A DNA stretch of 44,270 bases. Origin: Cytophagales bacterium. GTDB taxonomy: Bacteria; Bacteroidota; Bacteroidia; Cytophagales; JAAEPT01. Every line of letters begins with the position of its first letter. Positions within the stretch are counted from its first letter, which is position 1. Where the stretch lies: NCBI GenBank assembly GCA_043770215.1, contig JAYVIQ010000026.1, positions 1 to 44,270 of the forward strand, read 5' to 3'. This document shows positions 4,390 to 37,419 of this stretch, piece by piece. The position numbers and the translations under genes are program-made. Below the pieces are notes generated by a model that saw only the letters and a program-made list of their open reading frames with translations, searched no databases and was not told the DNA's origin.

Positions 4390-5700
4390 ATGTCAGACCC
4401 ACAATATAGTCAAGAATTAATTTTGCAAAAGCTTGGTATCACTTCGCTAAATGCCATGCAAGTAGATGCCAATAAAGCCATACAAAAATACGATAATGTA
4501 GTCATTTTATCTCCTACAGGTACGGGCAAAACATTGGCTTTTTTATTGCCTATTTTACAAAAATTAGATAAAGAGTTGCACCAAGTTCAGGTCCTAATAT
4601 TGGTACCATCTAGAGAACTAGCTATACAAATAGAACAAGTAACCAGAGACATGGGTACAGGTTTCAAAACCAATTGCGTGTACGGCGGCAGACCCATAAG
4701 CAAAGACAAATTAGAATTAAAACATCCGCCAACTATACTTATTGGAACACCAGGCCGTATAGCAGATCATTTAAGAAGAGAAACTTTTAGCAATCAATTT
4801 TTAACTACCCTAGTTCTAGATGAGTTTGATAAATGTTTAGAAATTGGTTTTGAAGAAGAGATGAGCGAAATACTTCATTTTTTACCAAACGTAACCAATA
4901 AAGTACTCACCTCTGCTACGCAAGAATTAGATTTGCCAGACTTTGTAGAGATGAAAGATGCTTTTGAAATCTATTACTTAGACCAAAAAAGCACTACCCT
5001 TGGAATTAAACTTGTTCTTTCAGAAGACAAAGATAAGCTCCCAACTTTAGTAAAATTGCTTTGCAATATTGGTAATGAACCTACTATAGTTTTTTGTAAT
5101 TTTAAGGAAAGCATAGACAGAGTGTGCGAGTATTTAGATGAGCATGGAATTGCAAATGGTTGTTTCTACGGTGGTATGGAGCAAAAAGATAGAGAAAGAT
5201 CTTTAATAAAATTTAGAAATGGAACATATCAAATTCTAATTGCTACAGATTTAGCAGCCAGAGGATTAGATGTGCCAGAAATAAAACACATTATACATTA
5301 CCATCTGCCGCATAAAAGCGAGGAATTTACCCACAGAAATGGTAGAACTGCTCGTATGCACACTGAAGGAACAGCTTATGTTATCAAATGGGAAAAAGAA
5401 CATTTGCCAGATTTTATAGAATCTAGAGAAGAATTTTTTCTTGAAAACATTGCTACTCCAGGACCAACATTATGGTGTACTGTATTTGTTTCAGGCGGCA
5501 GAAAAGATAAAATTTCTAAAGGAGATATAGCAGGATTGTTTTTTAAACAAGGGCAATTAAGCAAAGAACACCTAGGACACATAGAAATGAAACAAGATTG
5601 CGCTTTTGTAGCCGTACAAACTGAAAAAGTGAACCAACTGATACAGTTGGTAGATAACTCAAAACTTAAAAATAAAAAAGTAAGGGTAAACATTATTTAA
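4390..5700 (+). CDS. dbpA: DEAD/DEAH-box RNA helicase with C-terminal DbpA-type RNA-binding domain
   Basis: Q motif, SPTGTGKT, PSRELA, GTPGR, DEFD, SAT, ARGLD, HRNGRTAR; C-terminal GGRKDKISKGDIAG. Confidence 0.9.
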   Translation: MSDPQYSQELILQKLGITSLNAMQVDANKAIQKYDNVVILSPTGTGKTLAFLLPILQKLDKELHQVQVLILVPSRELAIQIEQVTRDMGTGFKTNCVYGGRPISKDKLELKHPPTILIGTPGRIADHLRRETFSNQFLTTLVLDEFDKCLEIGFEEEMSEILHFLPNVTNKVLTSATQELDLPDFVEMKDAFEIYYLDQKSTTLGIKLVLSEDKDKLPTLVKLLCNIGNEPTIVFCNFKESIDRVCEYLDEHGIANGCFYGGMEQKDRERSLIKFRNGTYQILIATDLAARGLDVPEIKHIIHYHLPHKSEEFTHRNGRTARMHTEGTAYVIKWEKEHLPDFIESREEFFLENIATPGPTLWCTVFVSGGRKDKISKGDIAGLFFKQGQLSKEHLGHIEMKQDCAFVAVQTEKVNQLIQLVDNSKLKNKKVRVNII

Positions 5701-5731
5701 ACTAACCGCAGACTAAGGTAAATTTCATAAG

Positions 5732-5771
5732 AAAAAAAAACAGCGAATTTGAACCCAATTCGCTGAATTTT
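5732..5771. terminator. Intrinsic terminator between the convergent helicase and LytTR genes
   Basis: CAGCGAATT(5741-5749)-TGAACCC-AATTCGCTG(5757-5765); the A9 tract at 5732-5740 gives a U-tail on the minus strand. Confidence 0.75.
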
Positions 5772-5806
5772 GCTGGTTAAAGAAAAAATACACACTAAAA
5801 ATAATA

Positions 5807-6430
5807 CTAATAAGCTACTTGATAACTTGTGGCAAGTTCAGATTCTTGCTCTTGTAAAAGGGTGGTTTTTTTTGAATATGTTATAAGATCTTTGTATGCT
5901 ACTCTAGACATAGAGATTTTAGTTTCTATTGAATCTAGTTTCAAAAATAATTTACCAGAATTGAAATGAATAGAATCTAAATAAGCTAGGTTGATGAAAT
6001 TAGATTTATTACATGCAAAAAAGTTTTTAAGCACAAAACAATCTAAATCGTTTACAACATTAATCAAACTATTTCTAATTATTTTCAATCTTACTTCTCC
6101 AGATTTTTGTTTAGTATATGCTTTTACATAACTGCCCATAGATTGTAAGTAAATTAAATCTTGTAAATGTACTTCTAAAACCTCATCTTGATTTTCATTT
6201 TTAAATACAAGCTCCAATGCTTGATTTTTATTGTATTCATTCAACTCCAGATTGAGTTTAGATTTTATGTTTGTAACAATTTTATTGTGATTTGCTGAAG
6301 AAAGATCTTTTTTAAAAATTAAATAAGACATTTTATTGTATAGACCAATAGCTTTTTTTAACAAAAGAAAAACATTTTGCTTGATAGCAACATCAGAAAC
6401 AAAATAAGTGATTCGCATGAGACTTTCCAT
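5807..6430 (-). CDS. LytTR DNA-binding domain protein without an intact receiver domain (degenerate)
   Basis: VHLQDLIYLQSMGSYVKAYT...IIRNSL...FFACNKSNFINL...ISMSR follows the LytTR pattern (I.YIE..GNY...F.RCHRS.IVN...VSR). Confidence 0.72.
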   Translation of the reverse strand: MESLMRITYFVSDVAIKQNVFLLLKKAIGLYNKMSYLIFKKDLSSANHNKIVTNIKSKLNLELNEYNKNQALELVFKNENQDEVLEVHLQDLIYLQSMGSYVKAYTKQKSGEVRLKIIRNSLINVVNDLDCFVLKNFFACNKSNFINLAYLDSIHFNSGKLFLKLDSIETKISMSRVAYKDLITYSKKTTLLQEQESELATSYQVAY

Positions 6431-6506
6431 AAACTATTTGTTTTTTACAATAGCAATTTAGGACAATGATATTTCAAAAAAAACAGCGTAAAACTCCAAT
6501 AATAAA

Positions 6507-6540
6507 AAAAAATTATAGGTATAAATACCTATAATTTTTT
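6507..6540. promoter_or_regulatory. Perfect 16-2-16 inverted repeat with core TAGGTAT-AA-ATACCTA; candidate operator (alternatively a terminator)
   Basis: AAAAAATTATAGGTAT-AA-ATACCTATAATTTTTT, about 75 nt upstream of the LytTR start; a related copy lies at 9326-9357. Confidence 0.55.
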
Positions 6541-6621
6541 AAAAAATTCAAAATTGATTCGTAATTAAAGTGCTGTTAAAATTCTTTAATCCTAATTTTT
6601 TATTCCTTTGGCTCAGAACCT

Positions 6622-6855
6622 CTAGCTTTCATTATAAAAACCCATCCATTGAACATTATTTAATAAATTTACTTTTATGATTTCTGCTTTATCTTGATCA
6701 TAAACCATTTCAACATAAAATCCATAGATACAATACATAGAATATATATTAAGGTCAGTTAGCTTAGTTGCCAAAAGTTTACCATCTTTTTTAATTAAAT
6801 TTAATTTAGATTTTAAATTAAACTGACTAAAATCTACTCTTGTAAGTGTAATCAT
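6622..6855 (-). CDS. Small hypothetical protein (77 aa) of a Bacteroidota-type family
   Basis: ATG 8 nt after the synthase stop. F..FNL..K..LI...G..L...YSMY.I.GFYVEMVYD pattern recalled from other Bacteroidota small proteins. Confidence 0.75.
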   Translation of the reverse strand: MITLTRVDFSQFNLKSKLNLIKKDGKLLATKLTDLNIYSMYCIYGFYVEMVYDQDKAEIIKVNLLNNVQWMGFYNES

Positions 6856-6863
6856 AGGCGCTT

Positions 6864-9281
6864 TTATTTTATGTAATTACTCATTGATTGTATTACAGAC
6901 ATATTATAATGATCTTCCATCTGAACATACGTATACGTAGCTTGTACTGTTGCACCAAACTTTTGTTTTTCAAAAGAAGCTGTAAACCCAAGAAACGCTT
7001 GTTCTGTTTGTAACTCTTCGGCTCTTTGTAGTGCAGTGTGCAGGGTCTGCTGGTAGGGTTTAAATTCTGAATATGAGTAATCTAAACCAATCATCATTAA
7101 ACTATAATTATTGCCGCTTAAATAATTAAAGATAACAGATACAGGCTCGCTAATTACTCCATTGTTAAATTCTGGTTTTATTCTTAATTCAATAATCTCC
7201 CAGTTTGGAGAAATTGCTATTTCTTTAAACAATTTCAATGGCAACTTAAATGTATTTAACTCAGATTTATTGTTCTTTACATTTAAATACAACTGATACC
7301 ATAACTGAATTTGTTTTTCTGTTGCACTTTCAACCAAACTAGACTGAAATTTATGTTGATGATTAAATACCGTTTTTTTAAGACTTGACCTCTTGTTTTT
7401 AGAAACTCTACTTAGCAGGGCATCTCCCGAAACTGGATTTTTAATGGTATTGTTATCCAATAACTCTGTTTTGAAATATCCATTCTTTGTTACTAATTTA
7501 TCAAATTGAATGTTATTTTCAAAAAAATCTCTCAACAATATAGATGTTGCAGATTCTCTTTTTTGGATTTCTGTAAGTTTAGCCAAAAATAATTCTATTG
7601 CTTCTTCAAAGAATTCAGAATCATAATCTATGTACAAATGTTCTCCCATAGTTAAAAAAGAACCTACGGAAAGTACTTTAGAAGTAAGGTAGTAAGGATC
7701 TGTTTTTCTTTTTATTTCTATTTGTTCAGAGATATTTGCATCAGACAACATATCATCTTTAGATAAAGCAGTAGTGGTAAACGTTTTTAAAACGGGGTTT
7801 CCTGTTCTTGTATCTCTAATGGTTAAAAAATCAAATACCCAGTTGTTTTCTACCTCTTGGTTGTTTTTAAATGTGTTTTCTAATAGCTTTATTCCATCCC
7901 AATCAAAACTTCCCTTTCCTTTAAAAATTGTGTCCCATTCTTCTTTACTTACCTTGTTTATAGCGTCTTGGTGTTCTAAAACTAGGTTTGATTTTTTTAC
8001 TAAATTATCTACAGTTTGGTGATGTATTTCTTCATATGATTTAAACCCAAAAGCTGTTTTCACCTCTGATAATGTATATCCCTCTTCGTTTAGTGCTAGA
8101 GGATAATGATGAGCCATGATTTCGGTAAATTGTTCTATTTGCTCAAAGGTATGTAATCTTGTTATTGTAAATCTTACCCCTGTATTTTTCATAGGTACTG
8201 CCGGAAAAATACCAATGTTTGTATATGCGCCTTCGTCCAAAACTCTTTTTACAAGATTGTACCCTACTTTTGGCAATCCTACACCAACAAAAAAGATTGG
8301 GGTATCATTGTTTGCCACTAAAGGAAGCCCACACTTTGTAAACAAAAGATTGGTATATTTTATATTCTCTTGCAAATCCATTTGCATCTCTGAAATTTCA
8401 TGTGATAAGTGAATATCTGCACTAGCAATTGCTGCACCTAAGGCTGCTGGCTGCATAGGCCCTGAAGTAATTAGCGGACCGCCACAATTTCTTACTTTTT
8501 GTGCCATTTCTTTTGTAGGAAAAACAAGCACGGCCCCCCCAGTAGCAAAAGCTTTAGCTAATGATGTAGCTACAATCATTTTATGATGTATCTGTCTATT
8601 GTCTAAAACATACCCTTGTCCACTTGTTCCATAACAGCTCATTCCGTGCGCATCATCTACATAAAAATGAAACTCTGGGTATTTATTCAATAATGTATAA
8701 ATCTCGTCTAGAGGCGCTTTATCTCCAAACATAGAGTATATGCCATCTGCCATATACCAAATTTGTTTGTGTTTTGTACGCAAAAACTTAATTCTATCTT
8801 CTAACATGTCCATTCTATTATGACGGACCATTTCTACATGAACGCCTTTTGGTTTTAATAACTGTACAGCATTTTGTACAGATGCATGTACTTGATGATC
8901 TAAAATTACTGCATCATCGCTCCCAACTAATGTAGGAATTGTAGCAATATGCCCTAAAGTAGTGGTAGGTGAAATTACACAATGGGCATTAAAAATTTTA
9001 TCAAACCTTAATTCTAAATCTGCGTATAAGCCACAGGACACATAGGAGCGAGAGGCTGAAAATTGCGTCCCATAATTTTGCATAGCTTGTATGCCTCCAT
9101 TAATTAATCTTTGGTCAAACTCTAAGCCTAAATAGCTACAAGATCCAAAGTTTACTGCATCCATACCATTTAAAGTTATGCTGTTTGAGGTGTACTTTTT
9201 ATTTTGCGTATACAAATGAGAAATACCTCTTGATGCTGCACTAGTTGCTACTTCATTGATGGAATTGATTATGTTTTTCAT
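6864..9281 (-). CDS. Bifunctional PLP-dependent alpha-oxoamine synthase (BioF/SPT/CqsA fold) with C-terminal GNAT/FemAB-like domain; start probably ATG 9281 (track uses TTG 9299)
   Basis: NFGSCSYLGL, LDHQVHAS, RHN, DGIYSMFGD, VDDAHG, SLAKAF (PLP Lys), PAVP...RF in the first ~415 aa. C-terminal ~390 aa has WYQLYLNV, GLDY and LGFTASFEKQKFGA, typical of Acetyltransf_6/FemAB-like GNATs. Confidence 0.85.
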   Translation of the reverse strand: MKNIINSINEVATSAASRGISHLYTQNKKYTSNSITLNGMDAVNFGSCSYLGLEFDQRLINGGIQAMQNYGTQFSASRSYVSCGLYADLELRFDKIFNAHCVISPTTTLGHIATIPTLVGSDDAVILDHQVHASVQNAVQLLKPKGVHVEMVRHNRMDMLEDRIKFLRTKHKQIWYMADGIYSMFGDKAPLDEIYTLLNKYPEFHFYVDDAHGMSCYGTSGQGYVLDNRQIHHKMIVATSLAKAFATGGAVLVFPTKEMAQKVRNCGGPLITSGPMQPAALGAAIASADIHLSHEISEMQMDLQENIKYTNLLFTKCGLPLVANNDTPIFFVGVGLPKVGYNLVKRVLDEGAYTNIGIFPAVPMKNTGVRFTITRLHTFEQIEQFTEIMAHHYPLALNEEGYTLSEVKTAFGFKSYEEIHHQTVDNLVKKSNLVLEHQDAINKVSKEEWDTIFKGKGSFDWDGIKLLENTFKNNQEVENNWVFDFLTIRDTRTGNPVLKTFTTTALSKDDMLSDANISEQIEIKRKTDPYYLTSKVLSVGSFLTMGEHLYIDYDSEFFEEAIELFLAKLTEIQKRESATSILLRDFFENNIQFDKLVTKNGYFKTELLDNNTIKNPVSGDALLSRVSKNKRSSLKKTVFNHQHKFQSSLVESATEKQIQLWYQLYLNVKNNKSELNTFKLPLKLFKEIAISPNWEIIELRIKPEFNNGVISEPVSVIFNYLSGNNYSLMMIGLDYSYSEFKPYQQTLHTALQRAEELQTEQAFLGFTASFEKQKFGATVQATYTYVQMEDHYNMSVIQSMSNYIK

Positions 9282-9305
9282 AAGCGTTTTTGTTATCAAG
9301 TTCTA

Positions 9306-9373
9306 CAGGTATAACTGAAAAAAAAACAGTATAAAAACCTAAATTTTTAAAAAAATTTTTGTTTTTTTACCTA
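9306..9373. promoter_or_regulatory. Divergent promoter region with three degenerate copies of the TAGGTA-N4-TACCTA motif
   Basis: CAGGTATAA (9306-9314, half site), ACAGTATAAAAACCTA (9326-9341), TTTGTTTTTTTACCTA (9358-9373). Confidence 0.45.
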
Positions 9374-9404
9374 TTGAATTATTGCTGTAATTAAATACAA
9401 TATT

Positions 9405-9788
9405 TTGAGTATTATTAAAATAGAAAATGATATTATTGAATATCAAATAAAAGACAGTGTTTTGTACTGTCAATACAAAATAAAAAAAATTGATTTAGAG
9501 GCCGCAAAAAAAGCAGTCTCGCTAAGAAAAGATTTTACAAATAACTTACCTTACCCAAATCTAATTAGAGGATTTGATGTTATATCTATGGACAAACAAG
9601 CAAGAGACTTTTTTTCTACAGACCAAGGGACAGTAGGGGTTAGCGCAGGTGCTTTACTCACTAATTCTGTTTTTCAGGCTACACTAGCAAACTTTTTTTT
9701 AAAGGTTACAAATCCAAAAATACCAACAAAGTTATTTACTGATGAATCTAAAGCAATATTATGGCTTAAACAGTATATTGCAAAATGA
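9405..9788 (+). CDS. Small STAS/SEC14 (SpoIIAA-like) domain protein; candidate ligand-binding sensor
   Basis: TTG start; IDLEAAK...MDKQARDFF...ALL..S......ANFFL....P..PTKLF..E..A..WL; the F..E..A..WL end is typical of SpoIIAA-like domains; ATGA overlap with the kinase. Confidence 0.7.
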   Translation: MSIIKIENDIIEYQIKDSVLYCQYKIKKIDLEAAKKAVSLRKDFTNNLPYPNLIRGFDVISMDKQARDFFSTDQGTVGVSAGALLTNSVFQATLANFFLKVTNPKIPTKLFTDESKAILWLKQYIAK

Positions 9789-10912
9789 ATAAACGATTGA
9801 TGGATATAAGTAATCTGCTTGCTCAATACTCTTTAGGCAATTTTGATTATGAAATACCCTTATCTAAAAATCTGGATGAAATAGATTCAATCATTTCTAG
9901 TATAAACATGCTTGGCGAAGAGCTAAAAGAAACTACCATTTCTAGAGATTTCTTTTCTAGTATTTATAATGCCGTCTCTAATTTACTTTTTATTATTGAC
10001 GAAAACGGTGTTATTACAGGCACTAACCATACTTCTTCAGAAACATTTCCTCAGAAAAAACTTATTGGAAGCCACTTTAATGACCTCTTAAATGAGGCTT
10101 CTGACCAATATTCTTTAAAAAATTTAAGAAAAAAAATTTCCAAAAAAAATCCTATCTACAAATTTGAGACTGAATTAAAAATAAATGAAAAGAAAATAAT
10201 TTTTGTTTCTTGCTCTATATCTCATATTGAAACCCAAGAAATTAAGGGTTTTTTTATTGTTGCTGAAGACATCACACAGAAAAAAGAAAGTGATCAGAAA
10301 GTCCTAAGGGCAATTATGCAAACAGAAGAAAGTGAAAGAAAAAGAGTTGCAGATGATCTACATGACTCTCTGGGGCAAGGACTATCTAGCATGAAAATGA
10401 TGCTTGGTGTTGCAAAACAAAATGCAGAGAACAACAAACAAAACGAAATAATTAGCTCCTCAATAACCATTTTAGAAAACTCAATTCAAGAATTACGAAA
10501 TATTTGTTTTAACTTGATGCCGTCGATATTAGAAAAAGGTGGTTTAACGTACGCCATAAAACAATTGATAGAAACTACAGCTTTCGAAATCCAATATTTT
10601 TCTAATGTTTCTACACTAAAATTAAACAAAAAACAAGAACTAGCCGTATATAGGGTAATACAAGAGTTTATAAATAATTCTATAAAACATGCTTTTGGAA
10701 CCAAAATTACTATTAAAATTGAAGAATTAGATAACAAAATAACCATTAAAGCATCTGATAATGGAATAGGATTTAAACAAGAAATAAATTTAAAATCAGA
10801 TAGTAGAGGGTTAAACACAATGCGCTCTAGAATTGAGTCTTTTGGAGGTAAATATGAGTTATCTTCTAGCCCTAAACACGGAACTTCATTAAAAATAATG
10901 TTTTTGATATGA
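9785..10912 (+). CDS. Soluble sensor histidine kinase: HAMP-like + PAS + HisKA_3 + HATPase_c
   Basis: N-terminal GNFDYEI...DEID...INML (HAMP-like); FIIDENGVITGTN...EDIT (PAS); ERKRVADDLHDSLGQ (H-box); QEFINNSIKHA, DNGIGF, GL..MRSR; no TM segment. Confidence 0.92.
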   Translation: MNKRLMDISNLLAQYSLGNFDYEIPLSKNLDEIDSIISSINMLGEELKETTISRDFFSSIYNAVSNLLFIIDENGVITGTNHTSSETFPQKKLIGSHFNDLLNEASDQYSLKNLRKKISKKNPIYKFETELKINEKKIIFVSCSISHIETQEIKGFFIVAEDITQKKESDQKVLRAIMQTEESERKRVADDLHDSLGQGLSSMKMMLGVAKQNAENNKQNEIISSSITILENSIQELRNICFNLMPSILEKGGLTYAIKQLIETTAFEIQYFSNVSTLKLNKKQELAVYRVIQEFINNSIKHAFGTKITIKIEELDNKITIKASDNGIGFKQEINLKSDSRGLNTMRSRIESFGGKYELSSSPKHGTSLKIMFLI

Positions 10913-11574
10913 CAAAAAATATAAAGATTTTAATAGTAGATGACCATCACTTAGTCAGACAAGGAATAAAACTTATTTTAAACAACCAAACGGAGTTAAA
11001 CCTAGAAGTAACTGAGGTAGATTGCGGCCAAAAAGCCATTGATTTATACAAAATAAATAAATTCGATTTGATTTTAATGGATATAAACATGGATCAAATG
11101 AATGGCATGGATGCCACAAAAGCCATTATAGAGTATGACAAAAACGTAAAAATTATAGCTCTATCTATGCACAACGAAACGTTTATGATAAAAAAAATGT
11201 TGGAATGTGGCGCATCAGGGTATATACTAAAAGACACTGAATCTACAGAACTCATAAAAGCAATAAAAACCGTTTTGGGTGGCCAGAAGTACTTTACCAA
11301 CGAGGTTTCTTTAAAGCTGATTGGCGAATTTAAAGAAAAACAACGCATAGAATTTAATGATGATTTACCTAATACTTTTAGAATTTCCAAAAGAGAGATA
11401 GAAATATTAACCCTTATTTCTAAACAAATGACCAACGATGAAATTGCGACAGAATTAGATTTAAGCAAACGAACCGTAGATGCTCATAGACAAAAAATGC
11501 TAGAAAAATTAGGCGTTAAAAATACTGCCGGTCTTATTATGTATGGATTAAAAAATCATTTAATAAGTTTATAG
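10909..11574 (+). CDS. NarL/FixJ-family response regulator (REC + LuxR HTH)
   Basis: IVDDH, LMDINM (phospho-Asp), ALSMH, GYILK; SKREIEIL...TNDEIA..L.LSKRTVDAHR...EKLGVKN; ATGA overlap with the kinase. Confidence 0.95.
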   Translation: MTKNIKILIVDDHHLVRQGIKLILNNQTELNLEVTEVDCGQKAIDLYKINKFDLILMDINMDQMNGMDATKAIIEYDKNVKIIALSMHNETFMIKKMLECGASGYILKDTESTELIKAIKTVLGGQKYFTNEVSLKLIGEFKEKQRIEFNDDLPNTFRISKREIEILTLISKQMTNDEIATELDLSKRTVDAHRQKMLEKLGVKNTAGLIMYGLKNHLISL

Positions 11575-11645
11575 GAATTATAAAAAGAACACTTTTAAGG
11601 CGGCAATAAAAAGTAGGTGCTTTTAGGCAAATCTGCACTTTACAC

Positions 11646-12950
11646 CTAGCCGTGTAAAATACTTTTCTTTTGTTTATAATGCTCATACCAAAACAATAAC
11701 CCAACGGATAAGTATTCTAGACCATTTACCCAAATCTGTTGTTGGTACGGAATACTAGCATAGGTAATGTATGACAAAGGAATTAAAAGCAACCACGCCA
11801 GATAATACAAGGGAAATTCTAAAAATATGTAAAACGGCAACAAAGGCAAAATATACCAGGGATGTATGCTTTGAGCACTTAATAAATATATCCATTGGAT
11901 ACCAATAAGCCCTATAATCAATGGCATTCTATTTTTTTTCCAAAACCAAAAAAAGAAAGCCATAACTACCATTACTAGACCTTTATATACAAGTGTTAAT
12001 GATTCTTCAAACCAAAACAAAGGCTTAAAAAGCACATAAAAACTGCTGTTGAATTCAAACGTAGAAAAATAAAGATGCACACTTTTTATAAAAAAAGTAA
12101 AGCCATGGTTATACAACATAGGAAAAACAAGAATGGCACAAAAAAAGATCATACATAAAGAAAAGACCCACTTTTTGCTCACATAAACAAAGAAAAAAGG
12201 CACAAAAAGCAAAGGTGTCAATTTTGTGAAAATGGCTAAAGAAAGACACATAGCTAGCCATATTGCTTTTTGTTGTTTCAAAAAATAAAGTGCCAAAATA
12301 ACAAACAATATCAACCAAAGTTCATGATGCAAATTTCCTGAAAACTCAATCACTATCAATGGACACATCCAATACCAAGCTAATTTTTTGACCTCAATTT
12401 TCAATAAATTCTTTAAAATGAAATATATAGCTACATCTCCAAATACAAATAGAAGTTTCATTAAAAACAAACTGAAAGCTACAGATTTACCAAAAAATAC
12501 ACATAACCAATTCAAAAACATAACAACTGTAGGATATACGGTGTAGTAATTTGGAGAATTTAATGCATAAAATGTACTCTTATACTCTACTTCCATTGCC
12601 CAAGAATGCTGTGCCAATTGGCTTGGTGTAAAAAGGTAAGGATTTATCCCTTCTACCAATAATTTGCCATCCCAAATAAAGCGATTAAAATCATCAGACC
12701 ATTGGGGTATAGACCATAAAAATAAGAGTCTAGAAAATAAACCCGCCACAAATAATATGTTGCTGTTTGAATTGCATTTAATAATAGAAATCCACAAACA
12801 AAACAATAAAAAATAAATGCCATAGTTTAGGCCAAAGTTGGTTCTATCTACACCAAAAGCTAGCACTCCAACGCCTAAAAAATAAAACATAAAAAGTAGA
12901 GGTTGGCCTTTTTCTAAATTGGTTTGTAACCCTTTATCTAAGCTTAGCAT
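11646..12950 (-). CDS. Multi-pass GT-C fold glycosyltransferase (GT87/mannosyltransferase-like)
   Basis: SDDFNRFIWDG...GINPY, TVYP, EFSGNLH, FEFN and HPWY motifs; about 10 or more TM segments. Confidence 0.75.
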   Translation of the reverse strand: MLSLDKGLQTNLEKGQPLLFMFYFLGVGVLAFGVDRTNFGLNYGIYFLLFCLWISIIKCNSNSNILFVAGLFSRLLFLWSIPQWSDDFNRFIWDGKLLVEGINPYLFTPSQLAQHSWAMEVEYKSTFYALNSPNYYTVYPTVVMFLNWLCVFFGKSVAFSLFLMKLLFVFGDVAIYFILKNLLKIEVKKLAWYWMCPLIVIEFSGNLHHELWLILFVILALYFLKQQKAIWLAMCLSLAIFTKLTPLLFVPFFFVYVSKKWVFSLCMIFFCAILVFPMLYNHGFTFFIKSVHLYFSTFEFNSSFYVLFKPLFWFEESLTLVYKGLVMVVMAFFFWFWKKNRMPLIIGLIGIQWIYLLSAQSIHPWYILPLLPFYIFLEFPLYYLAWLLLIPLSYITYASIPYQQQIWVNGLEYLSVGLLFWYEHYKQKKSILHG

Positions 12951-14421
12951 GTTTTATAGAAAGTAAGAAAATACTTGCAAACCCAAAAGTTATTAGACAA
13001 TGTAGCAACAATAAACTAAAATCTTGGTGAAAAACACCCCAAAACAAGCCAAACCCAAAATACAAAGCCAAAACACCTTCTAACCAAGTAAGAGAAGGTA
13101 TTTTTTGAGTCCTATAACTGTTTTCTATCCATTTTTTATTTCCCTTATCTAAACCAATATTGTATTTTGGAGTACGTATAAACGGGGTTTTTTTTCCGGC
13201 ATAACCTTCTAATACAGCCAAAGCATTATGCAAAGACAATCCCATAGACAAGGATAAAAGCATAGGGAAGGTAATGCAAAATTGAAGTAAATTTTTGAGT
13301 GTACCTTTTTTTAATGCAAAAAAAGAACTTGCATAAAATAAGGTTAGTGAAAATATACTAACCAAAAACAAAGAAGATATTTGAAACAAAAATAAATGAT
13401 TGTCTAATCTACTCTTCACAAAAAGAATTGGTACGCTACATATTGCTGCCAACATAAATGCAACAAAAATTGCTGAATTTAATAAATGCATAGTCGCATG
13501 TAATTTGGTACTTATTTTTTGGTCAGATCGCCAAACATTTAAGAGGTGTTTACGGGCTGTTTCTGCGGCGCCTTTTGTCCATCTGCGCTGCTGTGCCTTC
13601 AACTCATTCATGGTTACTGGTAGCTCTGCAGGACTTACTAAATGTTTAAAATACCGAAATTTCCATCCTTTGATTTGAGCCCTGTAACTTAAATCTAAAT
13701 CTTCTGTAAGTGTGTCAGATTCCCAGTTTCCAGCATCTAGAATTGTTTCTTTGCGCCACACACCTGCTGTTCCGTTAAAATTTATGAAATGATTTCCAAC
13801 ATTTCTACCTACTTGCTCTATTACAAAATGAGCATCTAAAGCAAATGCTTGTAATCTTGTAATGATAGAATAATGTTCATTTAGATGCCCCCACCTCGTT
13901 TGTACTAAACCAAGGTTTGGATCCGATTCTAGATACGGTATTAGGTCTAGTAAAAAATTAGCTTTGGGCAAAAAGTCGGCATCAAAAATTGCAATGTACT
14001 TGCCCTTTGCCAACCCTAAGCCATACTTTAACGCCCCTGCTTTAAACCCTTCTCTATTTGGCCTTCTAACCAATTCTATTTGAAAACCTTTTTGTTGATA
14101 CTGATTTATTTTTTGTTGTATTAAGCCTGTTGTTTCGTCTGTACTATCATCTAATACTTGAATCTGTAATTTTTCAATCGGATATTTTAACTTTATAATT
14201 GCATCTATCAAACGCTCTATTACATATTTTTCGTTATAAACTGGCAATTGGATGGTAACAAGTGGCAAATCAATATCATCTATTGGTTCCTGACTTGAAT
14301 CTATTAAACGTTTGCTTTTAAACCAATAATTATATGTGAGCTGAAGCTGTGTAATGCTAAATAAAAAAATGAACGCAAGCGCCAATGTGTAAATTAATAC
14401 CAATACCAGTGCCAAACTCAT
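12934..14421 (-). CDS. Processive-type GT2 glycosyltransferase (cellulose-synthase-like, CslA/CslC-like)
   Basis: VTIQLPVYNE, QVLDDSTD, GFKAGAL, IFDADF, FNGTAGVWR, TEDLDL, QQRRW (D,D,D,QxxRW), FIRTPK; TM helices at both ends. Confidence 0.9.
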   Translation of the reverse strand: MSLALVLVLIYTLALAFIFLFSITQLQLTYNYWFKSKRLIDSSQEPIDDIDLPLVTIQLPVYNEKYVIERLIDAIIKLKYPIEKLQIQVLDDSTDETTGLIQQKINQYQQKGFQIELVRRPNREGFKAGALKYGLGLAKGKYIAIFDADFLPKANFLLDLIPYLESDPNLGLVQTRWGHLNEHYSIITRLQAFALDAHFVIEQVGRNVGNHFINFNGTAGVWRKETILDAGNWESDTLTEDLDLSYRAQIKGWKFRYFKHLVSPAELPVTMNELKAQQRRWTKGAAETARKHLLNVWRSDQKISTKLHATMHLLNSAIFVAFMLAAICSVPILFVKSRLDNHLFLFQISSLFLVSIFSLTLFYASSFFALKKGTLKNLLQFCITFPMLLSLSMGLSLHNALAVLEGYAGKKTPFIRTPKYNIGLDKGNKKWIENSYRTQKIPSLTWLEGVLALYFGFGLFWGVFHQDFSLLLLHCLITFGFASIFLLSIKHAKLR

Positions 14422-15098
14422 TTTCTATATTTAAAAATTAATGTAATTATTTTGTAGGCAGCACCTATTACTCCTTTTATTGTACCAGAGATTTTAGATA
14501 TACCAATTCTATTTTTGTAATCTACAGGCACTTCTGCATACTTTAATTTTAAGTGCAGCGCTTTCAGCTGCATTTCTATGGTCCAGCCATAATTAGTATC
14601 TTTCATAGCCATATCCAAGAGGCATTGGTATTTTATAGCTCTAAAAGGACCTAAGTCTGTATACCTTGCATTATACAATATTCTCATTAGTAGAGTTGCA
14701 AACCAATTTCCAAAAATTTGCGGCCTTGTCATAGACCCTTTTTCTCTAATCCCTAAAGCTCTAGAACCAATAACAAAATCATAACCCGCATTTATTTTCT
14801 CTATCAAAAGACACATTTGGTGAGGATAATCTGAATAATCTCCATCTAAAAAAACAACAACATCTGGTTTAAGTATCTGATTAGCAATTGCTTCTAACCC
14901 TTTTAAACAGGCGTTTCCGTATCCTCTTTTAGGTTGGTGTACAACTAAAGCGCCCGCTTTTTTTGCTATAAAAGCAGTATTGTCTGTAGAGTTATTGTCA
15001 CAAACAATGATTTGGTCTACAAAAGTAGGGATCTCGGCAATTACTTTGGCAATGCTCTGTTCTTCGTTATTGGCAGGGATAATTACTGATATTTTCAA
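14418..15098 (-). CDS. GT2 glycosyltransferase, Dol-P-Man synthase-like; start probably TTG 15098 (MKISVIIPA)
   Basis: VIIPANNE, CDNNSTD, GYGNAC, FLDGDYSD, VIGSR, TDLGPFRAI; 4-nt overlap with the next gene. Confidence 0.88.
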   Translation of the reverse strand: MKISVIIPANNEEQSIAKVIAEIPTFVDQIIVCDNNSTDNTAFIAKKAGALVVHQPKRGYGNACLKGLEAIANQILKPDVVVFLDGDYSDYPHQMCLLIEKINAGYDFVIGSRALGIREKGSMTRPQIFGNWFATLLMRILYNARYTDLGPFRAIKYQCLLDMAMKDTNYGWTIEMQLKALHLKLKYAEVPVDYKNRIGISKISGTIKGVIGAAYKIITLIFKYRK

Positions 15099-15380
15099 GA
15101 TAAGTGCTAAAGTATCATGCAATTTAAAATATTTTGGGTCTATTTACACAATGATTTTTAAGTCATCATTAGATTTGTATCTACAACAACATATTTAGGT
15201 TATTGACCACAATTATATAGGATTTATTTTTAGTAAATACACTATACTAAAAGCCCTACTCATTAGATTATTTGGGCATAAAGTAAAATTTTAAAAGAAT
15301 TAAAAGTATATTAAGGGAAGTATTCGTAAATTTTGGCATTGGTTTTGAACAAAGCATTAGTAAATAAAAAATATAACAGA

Positions 15381-19316: not shown

Positions 19317-22300
19317 CTAAGTTAGACTAAATCTGACCCTAACCCCAAAAGCGGTAGTATTTCTACGAAAAGAAGATGAGATAGATGGAATATTGACTGT
19401 ACGCTCAAAGTAAAGTTGCAAATTTAGTTTTCTGTTGTATTGATAACTTAAATTAGGCCTTAATTGAAAACTAAGATTTCCAGCTGTAACTTCTTGGTTA
19501 CCATCTAACAAACGCTGTATTGTTTTCTGATCTCTAATTGTAAGATCCATCTTGTAAGTAAGGTCATTTGGCAATAGCTTTACTGGCTCTCCCTTCCATT
19601 TCCTAATGGGTGGTTTTTTGGTTACGAAACCAAAACCAAAATCAAAATCATTATTTCTAACTTCAGTAATTTGGGAGTTGGTCATATCCAATGCTAAATT
19701 CCTACTTTTATTAAAATTAAATTTAAAACTCATTCCTTCCTTAGTTCTTAAATTTATACCCAAAAGCGGAGTGAATCTTTCACTTATAACTACTTCATTT
19801 ACAATAAGTAATGGCGTATAATTTCCTAAACCATTTGTATCTAAAAATTCAGTATTAGACGATAGATTTGTTCTGAAATCTATATCGTTATATTCTAATG
19901 ATGATTTAAAACTTCTAATTTCATAACTACTCTGGTAGCCATGACTTACACTTATAGAACTAAATCGTTTGCGTAAACTTTTTATTCTTCCTAACCCAGC
20001 ATAATCTATTTTCCAGTTTGGCAAGGGTATTTTAGGTGTCTTTTTCAGTTCTTGGTTGCTTAATTGGTCAGAAGAAGTGATTTCTTTGCCAGAATATGCT
20101 GCTAAGAAAGCAGGTATTAGTACTTCTGGGCTGTTTTTACTAAAGCTACCAATCCCATTATCCTGTGCATTTAGCTTCTGCTGATAAAATTCTCTTGACT
20201 TTTGTAAATTTAAAAAACTTCTATTGCTATTTTGATCGCCATCTTTTACAAAAGCAGTTGGGAAAACTATGTAAGAATACTTTACGCTACCTCCGTAAGT
20301 TGGATTAAGTGTCTCATACCTTCCATCCAATCCATTGTAACGTATAATTTCTTGATATCCTTCTGTTTGTGTATAATCTGCATCTAATTGTACTCTAAAG
20401 TCTTTGAATGGCTCTAAGGACGCTTTTGCACTTATGGTTTCTTTTCTAGTTTGTTGTATGGGGGTATTTATCAAACTACTTTTGGTATATCTATCATTTC
20501 CTATAGCTTCGTTTTTTATAACATTTAAATTCTGACTTCCTGTTAGAAAAGCAAAGCTAGAACTAGATAAGTTTTCAAAGTCTGAACCAAAGAATTTTGG
20601 AGTAGCCAAGAAGCCTGGTAAATCTGTTGATTCATTGCTGCTATATCTTAAAGTAACGTTTTGAACCATTAGTAAGGTACGTATAAGATGTTCATGCGCA
20701 TGAAAATTTATAGGCTTTTTAACTTTCTCTACTTTGCTTGTATCAGACTCTTTAGGAGGTGCCTGCAAACGGGCAGGGTTTTTCTTGTAAGACAACACCT
20801 CTTTCAAATAATTGCTTTTGGTATACCACCTTGTTAAGTTCAGTTTTGTATTTACATTAAAATCTCTAGAATTACCTACAAAATTTCCTACAACATCTCC
20901 GTTTAAATCTTCTAGTATTGTGGGTACTGTATAAGTGCCAGGCAGACCAAACCCAGTTTCAAAAGCAGAGGCATTCCATTTATTGCTAAAATCATATTTG
21001 GCATCTGCGGTAATCCAATTAAAAACAGGTATTTTATCTATTGGTATTTTGTAGGCTAGGTTTACTTTTTGGTCAAAGTTTTTTAATCTGCCCATTTTGC
21101 TAAGGTTATCCCAAATTATCTCATTGTACTGAGATTTAGAAAGTCCTAATTCTCCCTCTTTATTGCCAATAGGTTCATCTATCAATGCATTGGCATTAGC
21201 AGCATAAGAAAGATTTAAGGCTTTTGTAAGATTCCAGCGTAAATTATAGTTTCTATTAAAGGTAAAGCTTTTTTCGTAATTTGGTGTTACACCATTAGTA
21301 TTTGGGTTTGTATTATCTGCTGATCTAAAATCACCATTGTACAACTGACTTCTAAAATATCTTCTGTTAAGTGTCCCTTGTACGCTTAAAGAACTTGGAA
21401 TAGGAGATAAATTAAATTCTTTGAATAAGTCAAAATATTTACTTTTTATTTTAGATTTTTTAAATGGCTCAAAAACTACTGGTTTGAAACTGTAAGAATA
21501 ATTGGCTGAGCCATCATAATTTTGGTCTAGATAAGAAGCTATGGCATTTCCAAAAGATGAGTTCTTTTGCGACCCTTGTCTTTTTTCTTCTTTATATCCA
21601 GCACTTAATGTCAGATTTTCTACATCAAAAAAATGTTTTTTCGAGTCGGTTTTCATTTTGACTTTTTTAACATTTGTAAGATTTATACTTTTTATTGTTC
21701 TGTTATAAGATACGGCTTCTAAGTACTCATCTGTGCGGTCTGTTTCAGAAAGTTTTACGTCAGGGTCAAATGGGTCATACTTTGGTTTTATTAATTCTCC
21801 ATCTACACTTGCAAAAAATGGGAGCTGAAGTCCTATTTTTTCGGGCCCAAATTTATGTAACGATAAGTTTGTTTGTGCTCCATATCCTAAATTTTGGTCT
21901 CGGGTTCTGTTTGCAAATTTAGATTCTATGTCTCCATAGTTTGCAGATGTATAACGCATAGAACCTGAAACACTACCCAAATCTGCCAACTGAACATTTG
22001 TATTCCCTAAACTTGCCCAGCCTGCTCTTTTGTCAAAATCTGTAACACGCAATTCATTAAACCAAACACAAGCACTTTTATAGTCTTTGTTTGCTTTAGG
22101 ATTTGTAACTCCCACCATAGACGTACGAATTGTACTTCTGTCTGGCGAACCAACCACACTGACTATATATTTTCCTACTTGTCTACTGTACTTTTTCCTA
22201 AAATCCACCCCTTTAGAATTTCTTTCTAACTTGGTATCTGTAAGGTCTTGTATGGCAATATCTATTTCATTTGCTGCACGCCAAATATCTTCTTGAGAAT

Positions 22301-25300
22301 TAGGGTTTAAGGAACTAAACTCTAATGGCACTGCTATTTCGTAATAGTTTTGAGTAATGTCTGTACCCAACCTTAAAAATGCAAACAACTCTCCGTCCTT
22401 GGTTCCGCTGGTAACTTCAGTTTCTCCATGAATAAACATTTTTATTCTTTTGTAATTAATTAAATCAGTAGTTATGTTTTTAAATGCTGCAGCACCATCT
22501 CCTGCTTTTATGTCTTCTGCACATATCTGCAAAGATTGTTCGTTTTGTTGTGCATTGTTTATAGATGTTTGATTTCTGTCTCTAACTACACCTGGAGGAA
22601 TCTCATAATTTGCATTTTCTTCTATGTTTACAGTGGATACATATACATTTGGATAGGGATCTACCTCACTTCTACTATCGCTTGTAAGTGCTTCGTCTTG
22701 TAAATTGTTGCCTGTATATTTTCTCCATTGAGAAGCTACTAATTGAAAATTTAACATACGTATAGCTACAGGATGTTTAAAACCTGTCATATACATTCTA
22801 AAATATTTAATGGTATTAAAGTTATTTATACCTCCCACAGAAGTCTGTGGAGACCTTATTGGTATTCTAATCTGATAGTAAGAGACACCGTCTCCGTCTA
22901 CTTTATCTACTACAAAAGGATGATTGGTGGTGCCGTTAAATACATCTTTATTAAACGGTAAATGATATTGGTAGTACCTATCTACTTGATCTAAGGTTTT
23001 GTTATTATTTAAATCTTCATTGTCAGGTGTTGTAGAAGAAGATTCTATAGAGTTCTGAGGCGAATTGTTTTCGTAACCGTTGAAGTTTTTATACCGCTCA
23101 ATGATACTTCTTCCATCGCCAGAAGCAGCCTCATCTTCACTAGTTATGTAATATTTAAAATCATCTGAAGATGGGTCATTTATAAATGATTGTAATCCAG
23201 GAGCATTTGGATCTACAAAGGTTTTGAGAGCGTTTATATATGATCCAAAAAAATCTATTTTTCTCTCAGATTCGTTATTTATACCGTCAAAACCAATGTC
23301 TTGTTGGTTTCTATCAGAACCATTATCAAAAGCATTGGTTAGAAATGTTTTATTTGTTACTATTCCAAATTTTGTAGAATCTATATCTAGTGGCAGTCCG
23401 TTTTCGAAACCATGCTTATTGTCTTTTATAATATCTTCAGATATATCTCCTAAGTTAAAATACAAATCACCACCTAAATCTTTATTGTCTATATCTTTTA
23501 CTTCAGGAAATATTTTTTCTAAATCAGCGTTAAAAGGATCCATTATCCAAAACTCTATAAACTCTACATTAGAATTTTCAAAATCTGTATCAAAAGATAT
23601 ATTTCTTGTTATACCTGCCCAGTTGTTTTCTGGTTTAGAAAAATATCCTGTAACCGGGTCTATCTCTAGTGGATTTGAATTGTAATTATAGGGACCTCTT
23701 TCTTTTGGATAATAGTTTATATCAAAGGTGACCAAAGCATTGTTAATATTATTTGCTTGCTGCTTTCTAGGAAAAACTTCTTGCTGTGCTATTCCTTTTG
23801 TAAACTGATTTTTAGCATGAAATTCAGGATCGCCTATTCCTTTTGCAGAACCGGATCCCGTTCTATAAAAAGACAAATCTGGATTAAACCAAACTAACTT
23901 ACCTCTATGGTCTCCAATACTTGGATCTGTTTTTCTATAATCATCAAAAATATTAAAATTGTCTCCTAGGTACACAGGTGGTGTACTTATGATCCACTGA
24001 GAAATACTTCTAGAAAAATCAAATGGTGTCTCAGCCCCCTCAAAATCATCTATATAACTTGTACCATTTTCGCCTAATACTTTAGAATTGCCTGGTAACA
24101 ATACGGCTGCCTCAAAATTTGAACTTATACTAGAGCTGGCTTTTGTTTGGATAATAGGAAGTTTGTCTACCATTTTGGTTATAAATCTAGAATCTTTAGA
24201 GAAACTAAAATCTGCTCCTATTTGGGTATTGTTTAGAGGCTCATCTCCTACACTTATTCTGGTAACAAGTGGCGCCTCTGCCATTCTCATAAATGTTGTA
24301 CCAAAATTAAAAATTTTACTGTGGTTGTATTCTACACGTGTACCTATCAAAGATTTTGTTCTAAATCTAAATAAATCTGCTTTTTCATACTTAATTTCTA
24401 TGTCTTTTCCAGATGCCATAACACCTGTATTTATTATATTTACACGCCCTGTAGAATAATCTACTGTATAATCAGAACCTTCTCTTAGGGGTATAGAACC
24501 TGCTCTAATACTTACAGAACCCTCTGTAATGTTTAGTCCAGGAAGTGCTATTACAGATGTAGATGCGCTCTGAAATCTACCCTTAACATAAAATTTATTA
24601 AATTCTGTTTCTCTTCTTGCTTGGGCTTGTGTGTTGTCATATAGGTTTTTAAAAACATATTTAGCTTTTAGTCCACCTTCTGAATTGCTAAAAAATTTAT
24701 TTTCTACACCCAAAGCTGGATTTTCATTTCTTGACATAAACTCTCCAAATGGCTCTGGTGTAGGAAAGATGATTAGTCCTTTTTTAGTTAAAACAGTAGC
24801 ATTATCTATAAAGTCAAAATTACCGTCAGAACTCAAATCTCCGTTTGGATTTAATTTATCTAAACCTAACAATTGCAGCAAAGGAACAGACTTAGATTTA
24901 GTTCCGTCTTGCAAACTAGGGTTGTCTATACCTGTAAAATCATCTCTATAAATTACACGCAACTGAAAATCATCTGGTTCTATTTGGTTTGTATTTAATG
25001 AGTAGATGTTTTTCATCATCAAATCCCATGTTTGCAAATTTAAATCTACACGTGCGGGTTTTAGAAGTTTTAAAACAATTACATCTTTTTGTTCTAAGGA
25101 CTGGTAATCTTCCTTTAACTCCCCTACTTTATAATTTATACCATTTAGCGTGTACTCAAAAGATACGGCTAAAGCCTCATCATCTTGCAGTTTGGTATTT
25201 AGAGAAATAAATCCTAGTTCTGGATGAAAAGTAAAATCTCGGCCCTCTTCTAATGCTCTAGCGTTATTGATTTTCTCAAAATCAGAACCTAAAACTAATC

Positions 25301-26585: not shown

Positions 26586-27176
26586 TTATGCTGTTTTCAA
26601 TGCTAATTTAATGAGTGTTTCTAATTCTATGTCTTGTCCTTTGAGTTTAATAATTGAATCCAAAGTTTTTTCTGCACTTGCTTTTGCCATTCCTAAAGTC
26701 ACTAATGCTGTTAACGCTTCTTCTTTAACTCTATTGTTCTGGCTGCTATATTTTTCACTACCTTCTACAGGACCTTCTTTTTGGTATTTATCTTTGAGTT
26801 CTAAAATAATGCGTTGTGCAGTTTTACCTCCAACCCCTTTTATAAGTTGCACTTTTTTTAAGTCTTCTGCGGCTATGGCTTGTTTTATTTCTGCACTACT
26901 CATAGAAGAAAGTGCAGCTAAAGCTGTACTTGGCCCAACACCGCTAATGCTTATCAAATCTAAGAATACTTTTTTTTCTAGCATTGTTACAAAACCAAAA
27001 AGCACGTGAGCATCTTCTCTAACTTGCAGATAGGTAAACAACTGACATAAATCTTGATCACCTAATTGGGTATACGTACTTATAGGGATATTTATTTGGT
27101 ATCCAACACCATTGGCTTCTATGATTGCCATAGAAGCTTCTTTATGTGCTAGTTTACCTTTTATGTATGCAAACAT
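26586..27176 (-). CDS. ruvA: Holliday junction branch migration protein RuvA
   Basis: [55 protein letters not shown]. Confidence 0.97.
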   Translation of the reverse strand: MFAYIKGKLAHKEASMAIIEANGVGYQINIPISTYTQLGDQDLCQLFTYLQVREDAHVLFGFVTMLEKKVFLDLISISGVGPSTALAALSSMSSAEIKQAIAAEDLKKVQLIKGVGGKTAQRIILELKDKYQKEGPVEGSEKYSSQNNRVKEEALTALVTLGMAKASAEKTLDSIIKLKGQDIELETLIKLALKTA

Positions 27177-29452: not shown

Positions 29453-29493
29453 TAATTTTTTGTATGCTAGGATGTGTGAAGTAATATAATTTA

Positions 29494-29501
29494 CAAATAT
29501 A
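29494..29501 (-). promoter_or_regulatory. Bacteroidota -7 promoter element TATATTTG upstream of maeB-ruvA-sprA
   Basis: Matches TAnnTTTG about 40 nt upstream of the maeB ATG. Confidence 0.55.
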
Positions 29502-29680
29502 CCGTATAATTATTGTTTAAAAAATAATAGTTAGTGATTTCGGTTTTAGTAAATTAGATTTATGGCTAATTCATACTTGTTCAAAAGTTTATGTAATAGA
29601 TAGATTTATTTTCAACTGTTCAATTTTATATTTATTTGTCTATCTTTTTTAGAAGCATACTAAAAACTGATATGTTTCTT

Positions 29681-30661: not shown

Positions 30662-30748
30662 TTTATATATATTAGTTAGAACTTAAGAAAACAATACTCT
30701 TTTTAAATATGAGGTTTTACAATTGTTTATTTTAAGATATCGTTTTTG

Positions 30749-30756
30749 CAAAATTA
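30749..30756 (-). promoter_or_regulatory. Bacteroidota -7 promoter element TAATTTTG upstream of the radical SAM gene
   Basis: Matches TAnnTTTG followed by C. Confidence 0.45.
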
Positions 30757-30948
30757 GATTGTGTCTTTTAGACCTGCGGTTGCAAGTTTCTTATTCTTCT
30801 GTTTTTTTTGCCTTAGTATTTTGGCTAAAAAAGCCAAATCACAAAATAGCACCCTAAATAAAAGAACACTTCTCCATTCATTTACACAATAATGATGTAA
30901 AGATTGGAGGTCTTCTTTCTAATCGTTTATGAAAGAAAATTCAAGCAT

Positions 30949-33747: not shown

Positions 33748-33760
33748 GTTTCTTTTTTTC

Positions 33761-37362: not shown

Positions 37363-37377
37363 TACCAAGAATCATTT

Positions 37378-37419
37378 AAAAAAAGGATTGTAACTTATTT
37401 TATTACAATCCTTTTTTTT
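37378..37419. terminator. Bidirectional intrinsic terminator between convergent DoxX and DUF4954 genes
   Basis: AAAAAAAGGATTGTAA(37378-37393)-9 nt loop-TTACAATCCTTTTTTT. Confidence 0.85.

Follow-up and report, generated by a model that had tools for sequence, protein, structure and literature searches.

A 44,270-nt stretch of DNA from a Cytophagales bacterium (contig JAYVIQ010000026.1 of assembly GCA_043770215.1; referred to here, at its full length, as the window) carries a gene in which an alpha-oxoamine synthase (AOS) domain dependent on pyridoxal 5'-phosphate (PLP) is joined to a C-terminal Fem-like tandem-GNAT domain. We show that this fusion gene lies divergent from a three-gene operon with overlapping stop and start codons, encoding a DUF7793 protein, a PAS kinase and a GerE-type response regulator, and that the synthase gene is linked to kinase and regulator genes in related loci as well. 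The resulting cassette looks like a previously undescribed system for making and sensing a signal, and not like biotin or lipid housekeeping. A preliminary description of the same DNA had proposed a two-step small-molecule synthase; the conserved signalling cassette was absent from it, and changes the role that the enzyme is likeliest to have.

The fusion protein and its two domains

The minus-strand open reading frame (ORF) extends over 6864..9299 when read from a TTG codon, and an in-frame ATG at 9281 gives a protein of 805 aa; this start is supported by a public protein of 99% identity and equal length, 805 aa. All PLP motifs quoted in the preliminary description are present (NFGSCSYLGL at aa 44–53, DHQVHAS at 128–134, TSLAKAF with Lys243, and PLITSGP at 269–275). 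Pfam PF00155 covers aa 65–385 (E 3.9e-22) and 41 solved AOS chains match at E<=1e-10, the closest being Alb29 (8xha; E 3.8e-38, 135 bits, aa 38–388 aligned), with Lys243 opposite the lysine of Alb29 TSLNKGF and DDAHG opposite DEAHS. Residues H132, D209, D210, H212, K243 and R370 are invariant or at least 90% conserved in 37 family members; following the AOS family literature, we take H132, the Asp-x-x-His pair and R370 to be PLP-binding residues and K243 to be the Schiff-base residue. At 135 bits, Alb29 appears on sequence grounds too distant for its substrate specificity to be transferred.

The N-terminal domain stands outside the established AOS families. Among the NCBIfam models, PRK07505, an uncharacterised AOS subfamily, scores best with 264.5 bits, which is under its curated cut-off of 342; for other relatives, fused or AOS-only, this model gives 248–271 bits. 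The domain falls far short of the cut-offs for BioF (TIGR00858, 159.9 bits vs 426.45), for the three SPT models (NF047599, NF047600 and NF047603, 111.9–158.3 bits vs 500–670), for KBL (NF005394 and TIGR01822, 139.5 bits vs 460), for ALAS (89 bits vs 339) and for CqsA-type synthases (NF005526, 75.9 bits vs 428). Two further AOS paralogs in the window's genome, 23–25% identical to the fusion AOS, are BioF-like (326 bits) and SPT/KBL-like (300 bits), respectively. In a quick maximum-likelihood tree of 48 AOS domains, six of them housekeeping-type paralogs, the fused proteins and their stand-alone relatives form one clade, set off from those six by a long branch with 99% support in the Shimodaira–Hasegawa-like approximate likelihood ratio test (SH-aLRT). 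Since it nests in no bona fide BioF, SPT, KBL or CqsA family, the N-terminal domain is, as judged from family scores and this tree, a distinct AOS lineage.

The C-terminal region of about 400 aa, described earlier as tandem-GNAT-like, is confirmed as such by structure comparison of its model, which shows with high confidence two GNAT lobes and an inter-lobe cleft. The fold is closest to Fem structures: the 11 best structural neighbours are all aminoacyl-tRNA-dependent enzymes, and the nearest solved Fem-like enzymes are Sbb17/Sba18, natural-product enzymes of Streptomyces. PF13480 (Acetyltransf_6) is borderline, with 21.6 bits in the full protein (cut-off 22) and 22.9 bits when the C-terminal half is scanned alone; among 18 stand-alone or cut-out relatives of the domain it is found in 13, and PF04339 ('FemAB_like') in 4. 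Residues 401–805 have no second copy in the source genome. With 40 invariant columns in the C-terminal half of 48 sequences that are 38–56% identical, the domain appears to be under strong constraint.

Several features of this domain bear on its donor. The motif Lys772-x3-Gly776-Ala777 is invariant (37/37 sequences), the helix that opens lobe 2 (about aa 622–645) has a net positive charge in all of these 37, and the classical CoA pyrophosphate motif Q/R-x-x-G-x-G/A is not conserved, being present in at most 1/37 sequences at any column of the C-terminal half and absent altogether from that half in 35. According to passages of PMC12945691 on Fem-type enzymes, the catalytic lysine is Lys305 in FemX and Lys329 in DhpH-C, and a positively charged helix of GNAT domain 2 touches the tRNA acceptor stem. 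By interpolation between aligned ranges, Lys772 falls near the position of FemX Lys305, which is suggestive; of the N-acylated and aminoacylated aminoketones put forward as products in the preliminary description, the fold neighbours favour the aminoacylated type.

The conserved cassette

For a census of loci, local hidden Markov models (HMMs) were run on the window and 88 loci, giving 90 genes of the AOS clade, of which 69 are fused, 3 split, 4 cut by a contig end and 14 AOS-only. Of the 76 genes that are fused, split or cut, 65 have a gene for DUF7793, whose fold matches STAS domains, no more than 1.2 kb away (61 upstream and divergent, 2 downstream and convergent, 2 downstream on the same strand); it is missing beside all 14 AOS-only genes. 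Its copy number is low, mostly 1–5 per carrier genome, with 18 in a single genome and zero in 14 control genomes. Across 301 genomes sampled evenly from the phylum, DUF7793 scores above cut-off in 15, among them all 10 that have the C-terminal domain; leaving aside the window's own genome, each of the other nine has a copy on the contig of the fusion gene, a few hundred bases upstream of that gene. The order DUF7793, PAS-HisKA_3 kinase, receiver-GerE regulator is kept in 20 of 34 Pfam-annotated loci, plus the window, and in 10 more of the 34 a different kinase is encoded no more than two genes away; the outer flanks are unrelated among these loci.

The translated kinase of the window has no obvious membrane segment, and all matches of the response regulator to the MctR, GacA and NarL NCBIfam families are under cut-off. 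A complex prediction for the fusion protein with DUF7793 gave a score of 0.00, run without controls, which bears neither way on binding. The genome with 18 DUF7793 copies (G003) has two fusion genes (L020, L021), both lacking a DUF7793 neighbour. At L039:4662-7774, four tandem DUF7793 genes precede the fusion gene, and downstream the usual kinase is replaced by a response regulator of the GerE type and a sigma-54 activator with a PAS domain. At L094:7467-17137 (Imperialibacter), two hybrid histidine kinase genes are flanked by a pair of fusion genes, both accompanied by a divergent DUF7793 gene of their own. At L017:5923-7893, the fusion gene is immediately preceded by a gene for a SpoIIE-type PP2C phosphatase with a YfiR/HmsC-like domain and has two DUF7793 genes downstream, an arrangement that hints at partner-switching regulation.

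On the other side of the fusion gene, Blast clustering of 64 downstream regions places homologs of the 77-aa ORF at the equivalent position in 29, and an HMM of this family, run over 89 sources, detects it in the window and 32 loci and at no other site. It matches no Pfam family, and in the ESM Atlas it falls in 'hypothetical protein' clusters exclusively from Bacteroidota.

A putative operator

The divergent regions of 40 loci share a palindrome, TAxGT-N6-ACx'TA, exemplified by CTAGGTAT-TT-ATACCTAG and TACGTCTTTATACGTA, the central bases of which vary by lineage with the symmetry preserved. Perfect sites number 15 per 9,714 nt of divergent regions (in 11/40 loci) vs 9 per 717,210 nt of flanks, and composition-preserving resampling predicts 0.09 +/- 0.3. 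For this strict motif class, the enrichment in the divergent promoters is about 120-fold. With up to one mismatch there are 30 sites in 20 of the 40 loci, vs 2.36 +/- 1.48 expected. A looser definition of the palindrome was dropped as too permissive in AT-rich DNA (57 sites vs 24.6 +/- 4.8 on resampling).

One of the nine perfect 'background' sites in the flanks is the window's own site at 6516-6531, upstream of a LytTR gene that is not conserved at that position in other loci; others lie upstream of unrelated small ORFs just past the regulator gene (L042, L044, L045). The site pattern is consistent with a palindrome bound by the GerE-type regulator encoded nearby, which would have additional targets that differ by lineage, and the LytTR gene is probably a window-specific target of the cassette. 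The small operator-bearing ORFs after the regulator gene (L042, L044, L045 and others) were considered as one family and rejected as such (26% mean column identity, no invariant column).

Distribution of fused, split and AOS-only forms

A search for full-length homologs, in which 8000 candidates were scored, returned 2351 at E<=1e-3, and the best 120 of these are 780–848 aa long and cover 97–100% of the query; the two-domain architecture is thus far beyond chance. Source records give them generic labels ('bifunctional aminotransferase class I/II-fold PLP-dependent enzyme/GNAT family N-acetyltransferase', '7-keto-8-aminopelargonate synthetase-like enzyme'). The C-terminal half, searched exhaustively, gave 516 representatives of 50% clusters at E<=1e-3, 197 of them at E<=1e-30. 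By hand count, 84 of the best 150 of the 516 are at least 700 aa long with the match in the C-terminal half, and the remainder of those 150 are 213–656 aa long, many of them probably fragments or split forms.

The full-length fusion is present in 5 of 41 related genomes (G003 and G024 have two copies each) plus the window's own; a further one (G006) has a split form and another (G004) a piece at a contig end. In the even phylum sample the C-terminal domain occurs in 10/301 genomes. Another 80 loci are mostly from Bacteroidota (Chitinophagaceae, including Ferruginibacter paludis CECT 8366, Crocinitomicaceae, Saprospiraceae, Cyclobacteriaceae and Imperialibacter). A few contigs of metagenome-assembled genomes bear Pseudomonadota or Cyanobacteria labels. 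Fusion genes lie on such metagenomic contigs under the names Henriciella, Saccharospirillaceae, Moraxellaceae, Cyanobacteria UBA8530, Reinekea and Alteromonadaceae (L046, L065, L073, L074, L075, L103), which could reflect horizontal transfer or mis-binning; L074 and L075 have no DUF7793, but kinases adjoin. Split or frameshift-like versions occur at L023 (in G006; 460 aa of AOS and 357 aa of Fem-like protein), L036, L040, L067 and G162:C1:1214936-1216109, and may be real splits, pseudogenes or assembly errors.

Two-component genes adjoin in 5 of 10 annotated AOS-only loci, with a LytS-type kinase and a LytTR regulator in 3 and a PAS/HisKA or HisKA kinase directly downstream in 2, and this suggests that the entire AOS lineage tends toward linkage with signalling genes. 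A divergent MerR regulator is found in 3/10. In L076, L083 and L086, convergent genes follow the stand-alone AOS gene, coding for a LiaF-TM protein, a kinase of the LytS type and a LytTR regulator; the MerR gene precedes the AOS gene in L076 and L083, and L085 has the same MerR gene without the kinase and LytTR pair.

Features of the window

The fusion-gene region has a G+C content of about 28–33%, matching the rest of the window, whose source genome comprises 2.46 Mb in 231 contigs (94.7% complete). Within positions 5000-12000, no Rfam family was found at E<=0.1; a sigma-70 promoter scan was uninformative here (25 sites vs 30.8 expected).

Features of the cassette and its neighbourhood in the window (positions are those of the whole window)
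Position	Strand	Feature	Basis
5807..6430	-	207-aa LytTR-domain protein without receiver domain, downstream neighbour	PF04397, E 2.8e-9
6516..6531		perfect 16-bp palindrome TAGGTATAAATACCTA, core of an 18-bp palindrome; putative response-regulator operator	about 85 bp upstream of LytTR gene start; strict scan
6622..6855	-	conserved 77-aa ORF, starting 9 nt past the fusion stop codon	sequence; family downstream of fusion gene
6864..9281	-	AOS-Fem/GNAT fusion gene, 805 aa, stop codon counted in	ORF and translation; full-length homologs 780–848 aa
6867..7991	-	C-terminal Fem-like tandem-GNAT domain, about aa 431–805; invariant Lys772-x3-Gly776-Ala777; basic helix about aa 622–645	
8082..9281	-	N-terminal AOS (PLP) domain, aa 1–400; putative Schiff-base lysine Lys243	PF00155, PRK07505, Alb29 8xha, residue conservation
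9282..9404		divergent intergenic region between fusion gene and DUF7793 operon; only degenerate half-site-like repeats	sequence
9405..9788	+	DUF7793 protein, 127 aa, STAS/SpoIIAA-like fold, divergent from fusion gene	
9785..10912	+	cytoplasmic sensor histidine kinase: HAMP-like N-terminus, PAS, HisKA_3, HATPase_c; overlaps DUF7793 stop by 4 nt	Pfam
10909..11574	+	NarL/LuxR-type response regulator, receiver and GerE helix-turn-helix; overlaps kinase stop by 4 nt	Pfam

There is no terminator-like site between the LytTR gene and the 77-aa ORF; the sole such site at the 3' end of the cassette is a bidirectional terminator-like hairpin at 5741-5765, between the LytTR gene and a convergent gene for a DbpA-type helicase. 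Right after the regulator gene stand three glycosyltransferase-like genes (GT87-like, GT2 and GT2; 11646-15122, minus strand), which lie outside the conserved cassette elsewhere. Farther on, the minus strand carries a 2422-aa ORF (19317-26585) and a run of large same-strand ORFs of 758, 932, 939, 724 and 611 aa (27176-41598).

Proposed mechanism and alternative explanations

AOS family enzymes condense an amino acid with an acyl-thioester to an alpha-aminoketone. As to the substrates, the type of donor, the product and its sensing by the kinase or the STAS protein, we infer the following. The N-terminal PLP domain would perform this condensation, and the Fem-type tandem-GNAT domain would cap the new amine, most likely with an aminoacyl group from aminoacyl-tRNA, a donor to which four features point: the structural neighbours, the invariant Lys772 motif, the positively charged helix and the lack of a conserved CoA motif. 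The resulting N-aminoacyl-aminoketone would belong to a type of compound that undergoes spontaneous cyclisation, giving a dihydropyrazinone or pyrazinone, as in the case of 3,5-dimethylpyrazin-2-ol (DPO). The fusion enzyme would then be the output, probably the signal synthase, of a conserved Bacteroidota cassette, which the co-transcribed 77-aa protein may complete; the regulator may bind 7-2-7-like palindromes in the divergent promoter and, in the window, upstream of the LytTR gene. Linkage with the STAS protein, the PAS kinase, the regulator and a shared-promoter operator fits a cassette of synthase and receptor. We tentatively favour this whole chain, a two-step synthase with capping within a signal cassette, and put its chance somewhat below even.

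A number of points weigh against it. The fusion family is known from sequence and predicted folds alone, and linkage to two-component genes indicates co-regulation, not that the product is the ligand. Eight of the 76 genes have upstream room yet no DUF7793 (3 more are without upstream sequence), and the canonical kinase–regulator pair does not adjoin in 14 of the 34 loci. The window's own divergent region has no strict palindrome, only AT-rich inverted repeats. With respect to the C-terminal domain, the gap in Z score between Fem-type and other tandem GNATs is just 2–5 units, and the place of Lys772, at about FemX residue 308, is interpolated from ranges (model 36–395 vs FemX 1–331) and not taken from a residue alignment. 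The domain has no sequence match to any solved Fem protein (against solved structures its best E values, 0.58 with a single sequence and 0.15 with a profile, are to unrelated proteins), and its Pfam matches are limited to the generic PF13480 and PF04339, with no FemAB family; the donor could therefore be other than aminoacyl-tRNA. Moreover, AOS-only relatives that are 47–51% identical, including those of three Sphingobacterium species, lie inside the fused clade, where the starred branches of the quick tree force at least two changes between fused and AOS-only states, so the AOS may work without the second domain.

The rival that we take most seriously, while considering it unlikely, has the second domain use acyl-CoA or acyl-acyl carrier protein (acyl-ACP) and yield an N-acyl aminoketone, such as an oxidised ceramide-like or lipoamino lipid, with the two-component system regulating envelope remodelling. 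The generic family matches leave room for such a donor; the lack of a conserved CoA-pyrophosphate motif and the aminoacyl-tRNA dependence of all 11 best structural neighbours argue against it. The cassette is also patchy (10/301 genomes), which would be unusual for a core membrane-lipid pathway; neither a reductase, ACP or flippase gene nor a lipid gene is conserved alongside, and the kinase and the STAS protein look cytoplasmic and not like envelope sensors. Ranked next, and likewise improbable in our judgement, is a specialised metabolite (an antibiotic-like pseudopeptide, a cofactor or a pigment precursor) that is switched by the two-component system on some other PAS cue and is not itself sensed. 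PAS kinases do sense many cues, the nearest solved AOS (Alb29) and Fem-like enzymes (Sbb17/Sba18) come from Streptomyces natural-product pathways, and operator sites are also found before lineage-specific genes (the LytTR gene of the window, the small ORFs in three other loci). Set against this are the minimal make-up of the cassette, which has one biosynthetic gene and no conserved transporter, resistance or tailoring genes, the known autoinducer layout of a synthase beside a kinase and a regulator, as in CqsA/CqsS, and the frequent presence of two-component genes beside the stand-alone AOS sisters (5/10 loci).

The preliminary description had also allowed for a non-catalytic GNAT module that senses a ligand. 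In this case, or if the module served in scaffolding or regulation, the AOS alone would make the final product. One lobe is inactive in many tandem GNATs, the Pfam match is weak, AOS-only relatives occur within the fused clade and split forms exist. We nevertheless disfavour this explanation, and give it little credence, because the lysine motif is invariant where Fem enzymes have their catalytic lysine (as placed by interpolation); the 40 invariant columns at such modest identity, and the retention of both lobes and of the cleft between them in the high-confidence model, likewise argue against it. Finally, a housekeeping BioF, KBL, SPT or capnine-type synthase with an accessory domain could draw on the general AOS similarity (159.9, 158 and 139.5 bits for BioF, SPT and KBL), but is effectively refuted by scores far below the cut-offs, the separate BioF-like and SPT/KBL-like paralogs in the genome and the 99% SH-aLRT branch, and the patchy distribution also stands against it.

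Significance and comparison with known systems

Literature searches, conducted partly at the level of listings and abstracts, uncovered no earlier account of the fusion, DUF7793 or the cassette, and at the listing and abstract level no self-made autoinducer system of Bacteroidota surfaced. Were the favoured two-step signal synthase to hold, it would provide Bacteroidota with a self-contained cassette of signal synthase and receptor, a native system of cell–cell or autocrine signalling with a predicted operator and entry points to its regulon; it would add a new non-translational use of aminoacyl-tRNA and a dedicated enzymatic route to aminoketone-derived pyrazinone signals, the best-known of which, DPO, is described in PMC12930378 as having 'apparently no dedicated synthase'. 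A stronger version, in which the fusion would be the first enzyme dedicated to making an N-aminoacyl-aminoketone or pyrazinone-type signal, fed by aminoacyl-tRNA and paired with its own cytoplasmic receptor system, we regard as doubtful. Even conservatively, the fusion represents an uncharacterised enzyme family of about 500 clusters at 50% identity, and three partner families of unknown function (DUF7793, the 77-aa ORF and the PAS kinase subfamily) present themselves for joint study.

With regard to architecture, mycobacterial BioF2, cited in the preliminary description as having the reverse order of domains, has the same two domain types in one protein, and no BioF2-like arrangement was found among the 150 best representatives of the C-domain search. 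The N-terminal domain of DhpH is PLP-dependent and, to our knowledge, is not an AOS. DhpH resembles the fusion in that a C-terminal Fem-like domain shares one polypeptide with an N-terminal enzyme domain, and in dehydrophos biosynthesis, as outlined in part of PMC12945691, this domain aminoacylates a pathway amine from Leu-tRNA; DhpH belongs to an actinobacterial phosphonate antibiotic pathway with no two-component cassette. Unlike FemX/FemA, Sbb17/Sba18, VlmA, PacB and DhpH-C, the C-terminal domain described here is joined to an AOS and lacks a sequence match to solved Fem proteins. Alb29, an AOS of albogrisin biosynthesis in Streptomyces that is described in passages of PMC11906848 as using L-glutamate and several acyl-CoAs, is a stand-alone enzyme of 401 aa, whereas the AOS here is fused. 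In the bacterial ceramide pathway, as sketched in sections of PMC11087976, bCerS N-acylates the product of Spt (an AOS) while it is still a ketone, before reduction; Spt and bCerS are separate proteins working with an acyl donor, in contrast to the single fused protein considered here.

With regard to chemistry, DPO and the AI-3-type pyrazinones follow the course that we propose, in which an aminoketone and an activated amino acid give an N-aminoacyl-aminoketone and from it a pyrazinone signal. According to the relevant parts of PMC12930378, N-alanyl-aminoacetone cyclises to the Vibrio autoinducer DPO, and the aminoketone arises via threonine dehydrogenase and couples spontaneously with aminoacyl-adenylates, with 'no dedicated synthase'; the proposal here differs in having a dedicated fused enzyme.

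With regard to regulation, NarL/NarP-type operators are 7-2-7 palindromes, and the putative operator likewise has two heptamer-like arms and a 2-nt centre beside a gene for a GerE-type regulator, with the difference that its half-site is TAxGTAT-like and varies across lineages, though remaining palindromic. The closest parallels in layout are CqsA/CqsS of Vibrio and LqsA/LqsS/LqsR of Legionella, systems of alpha-hydroxyketone quorum sensing in which the gene for an AOS-family enzyme lies beside those for a sensor kinase and a regulator, as the AOS gene here is linked to a kinase and a regulator in most loci. Unlike CqsA, the fusion has a Fem-type second domain, its kinase is of a cytoplasmic PAS-HisKA_3 type and not of the membrane CqsS type, and a STAS protein and a 77-aa ORF are added to what CqsA and LqsA loci contain.

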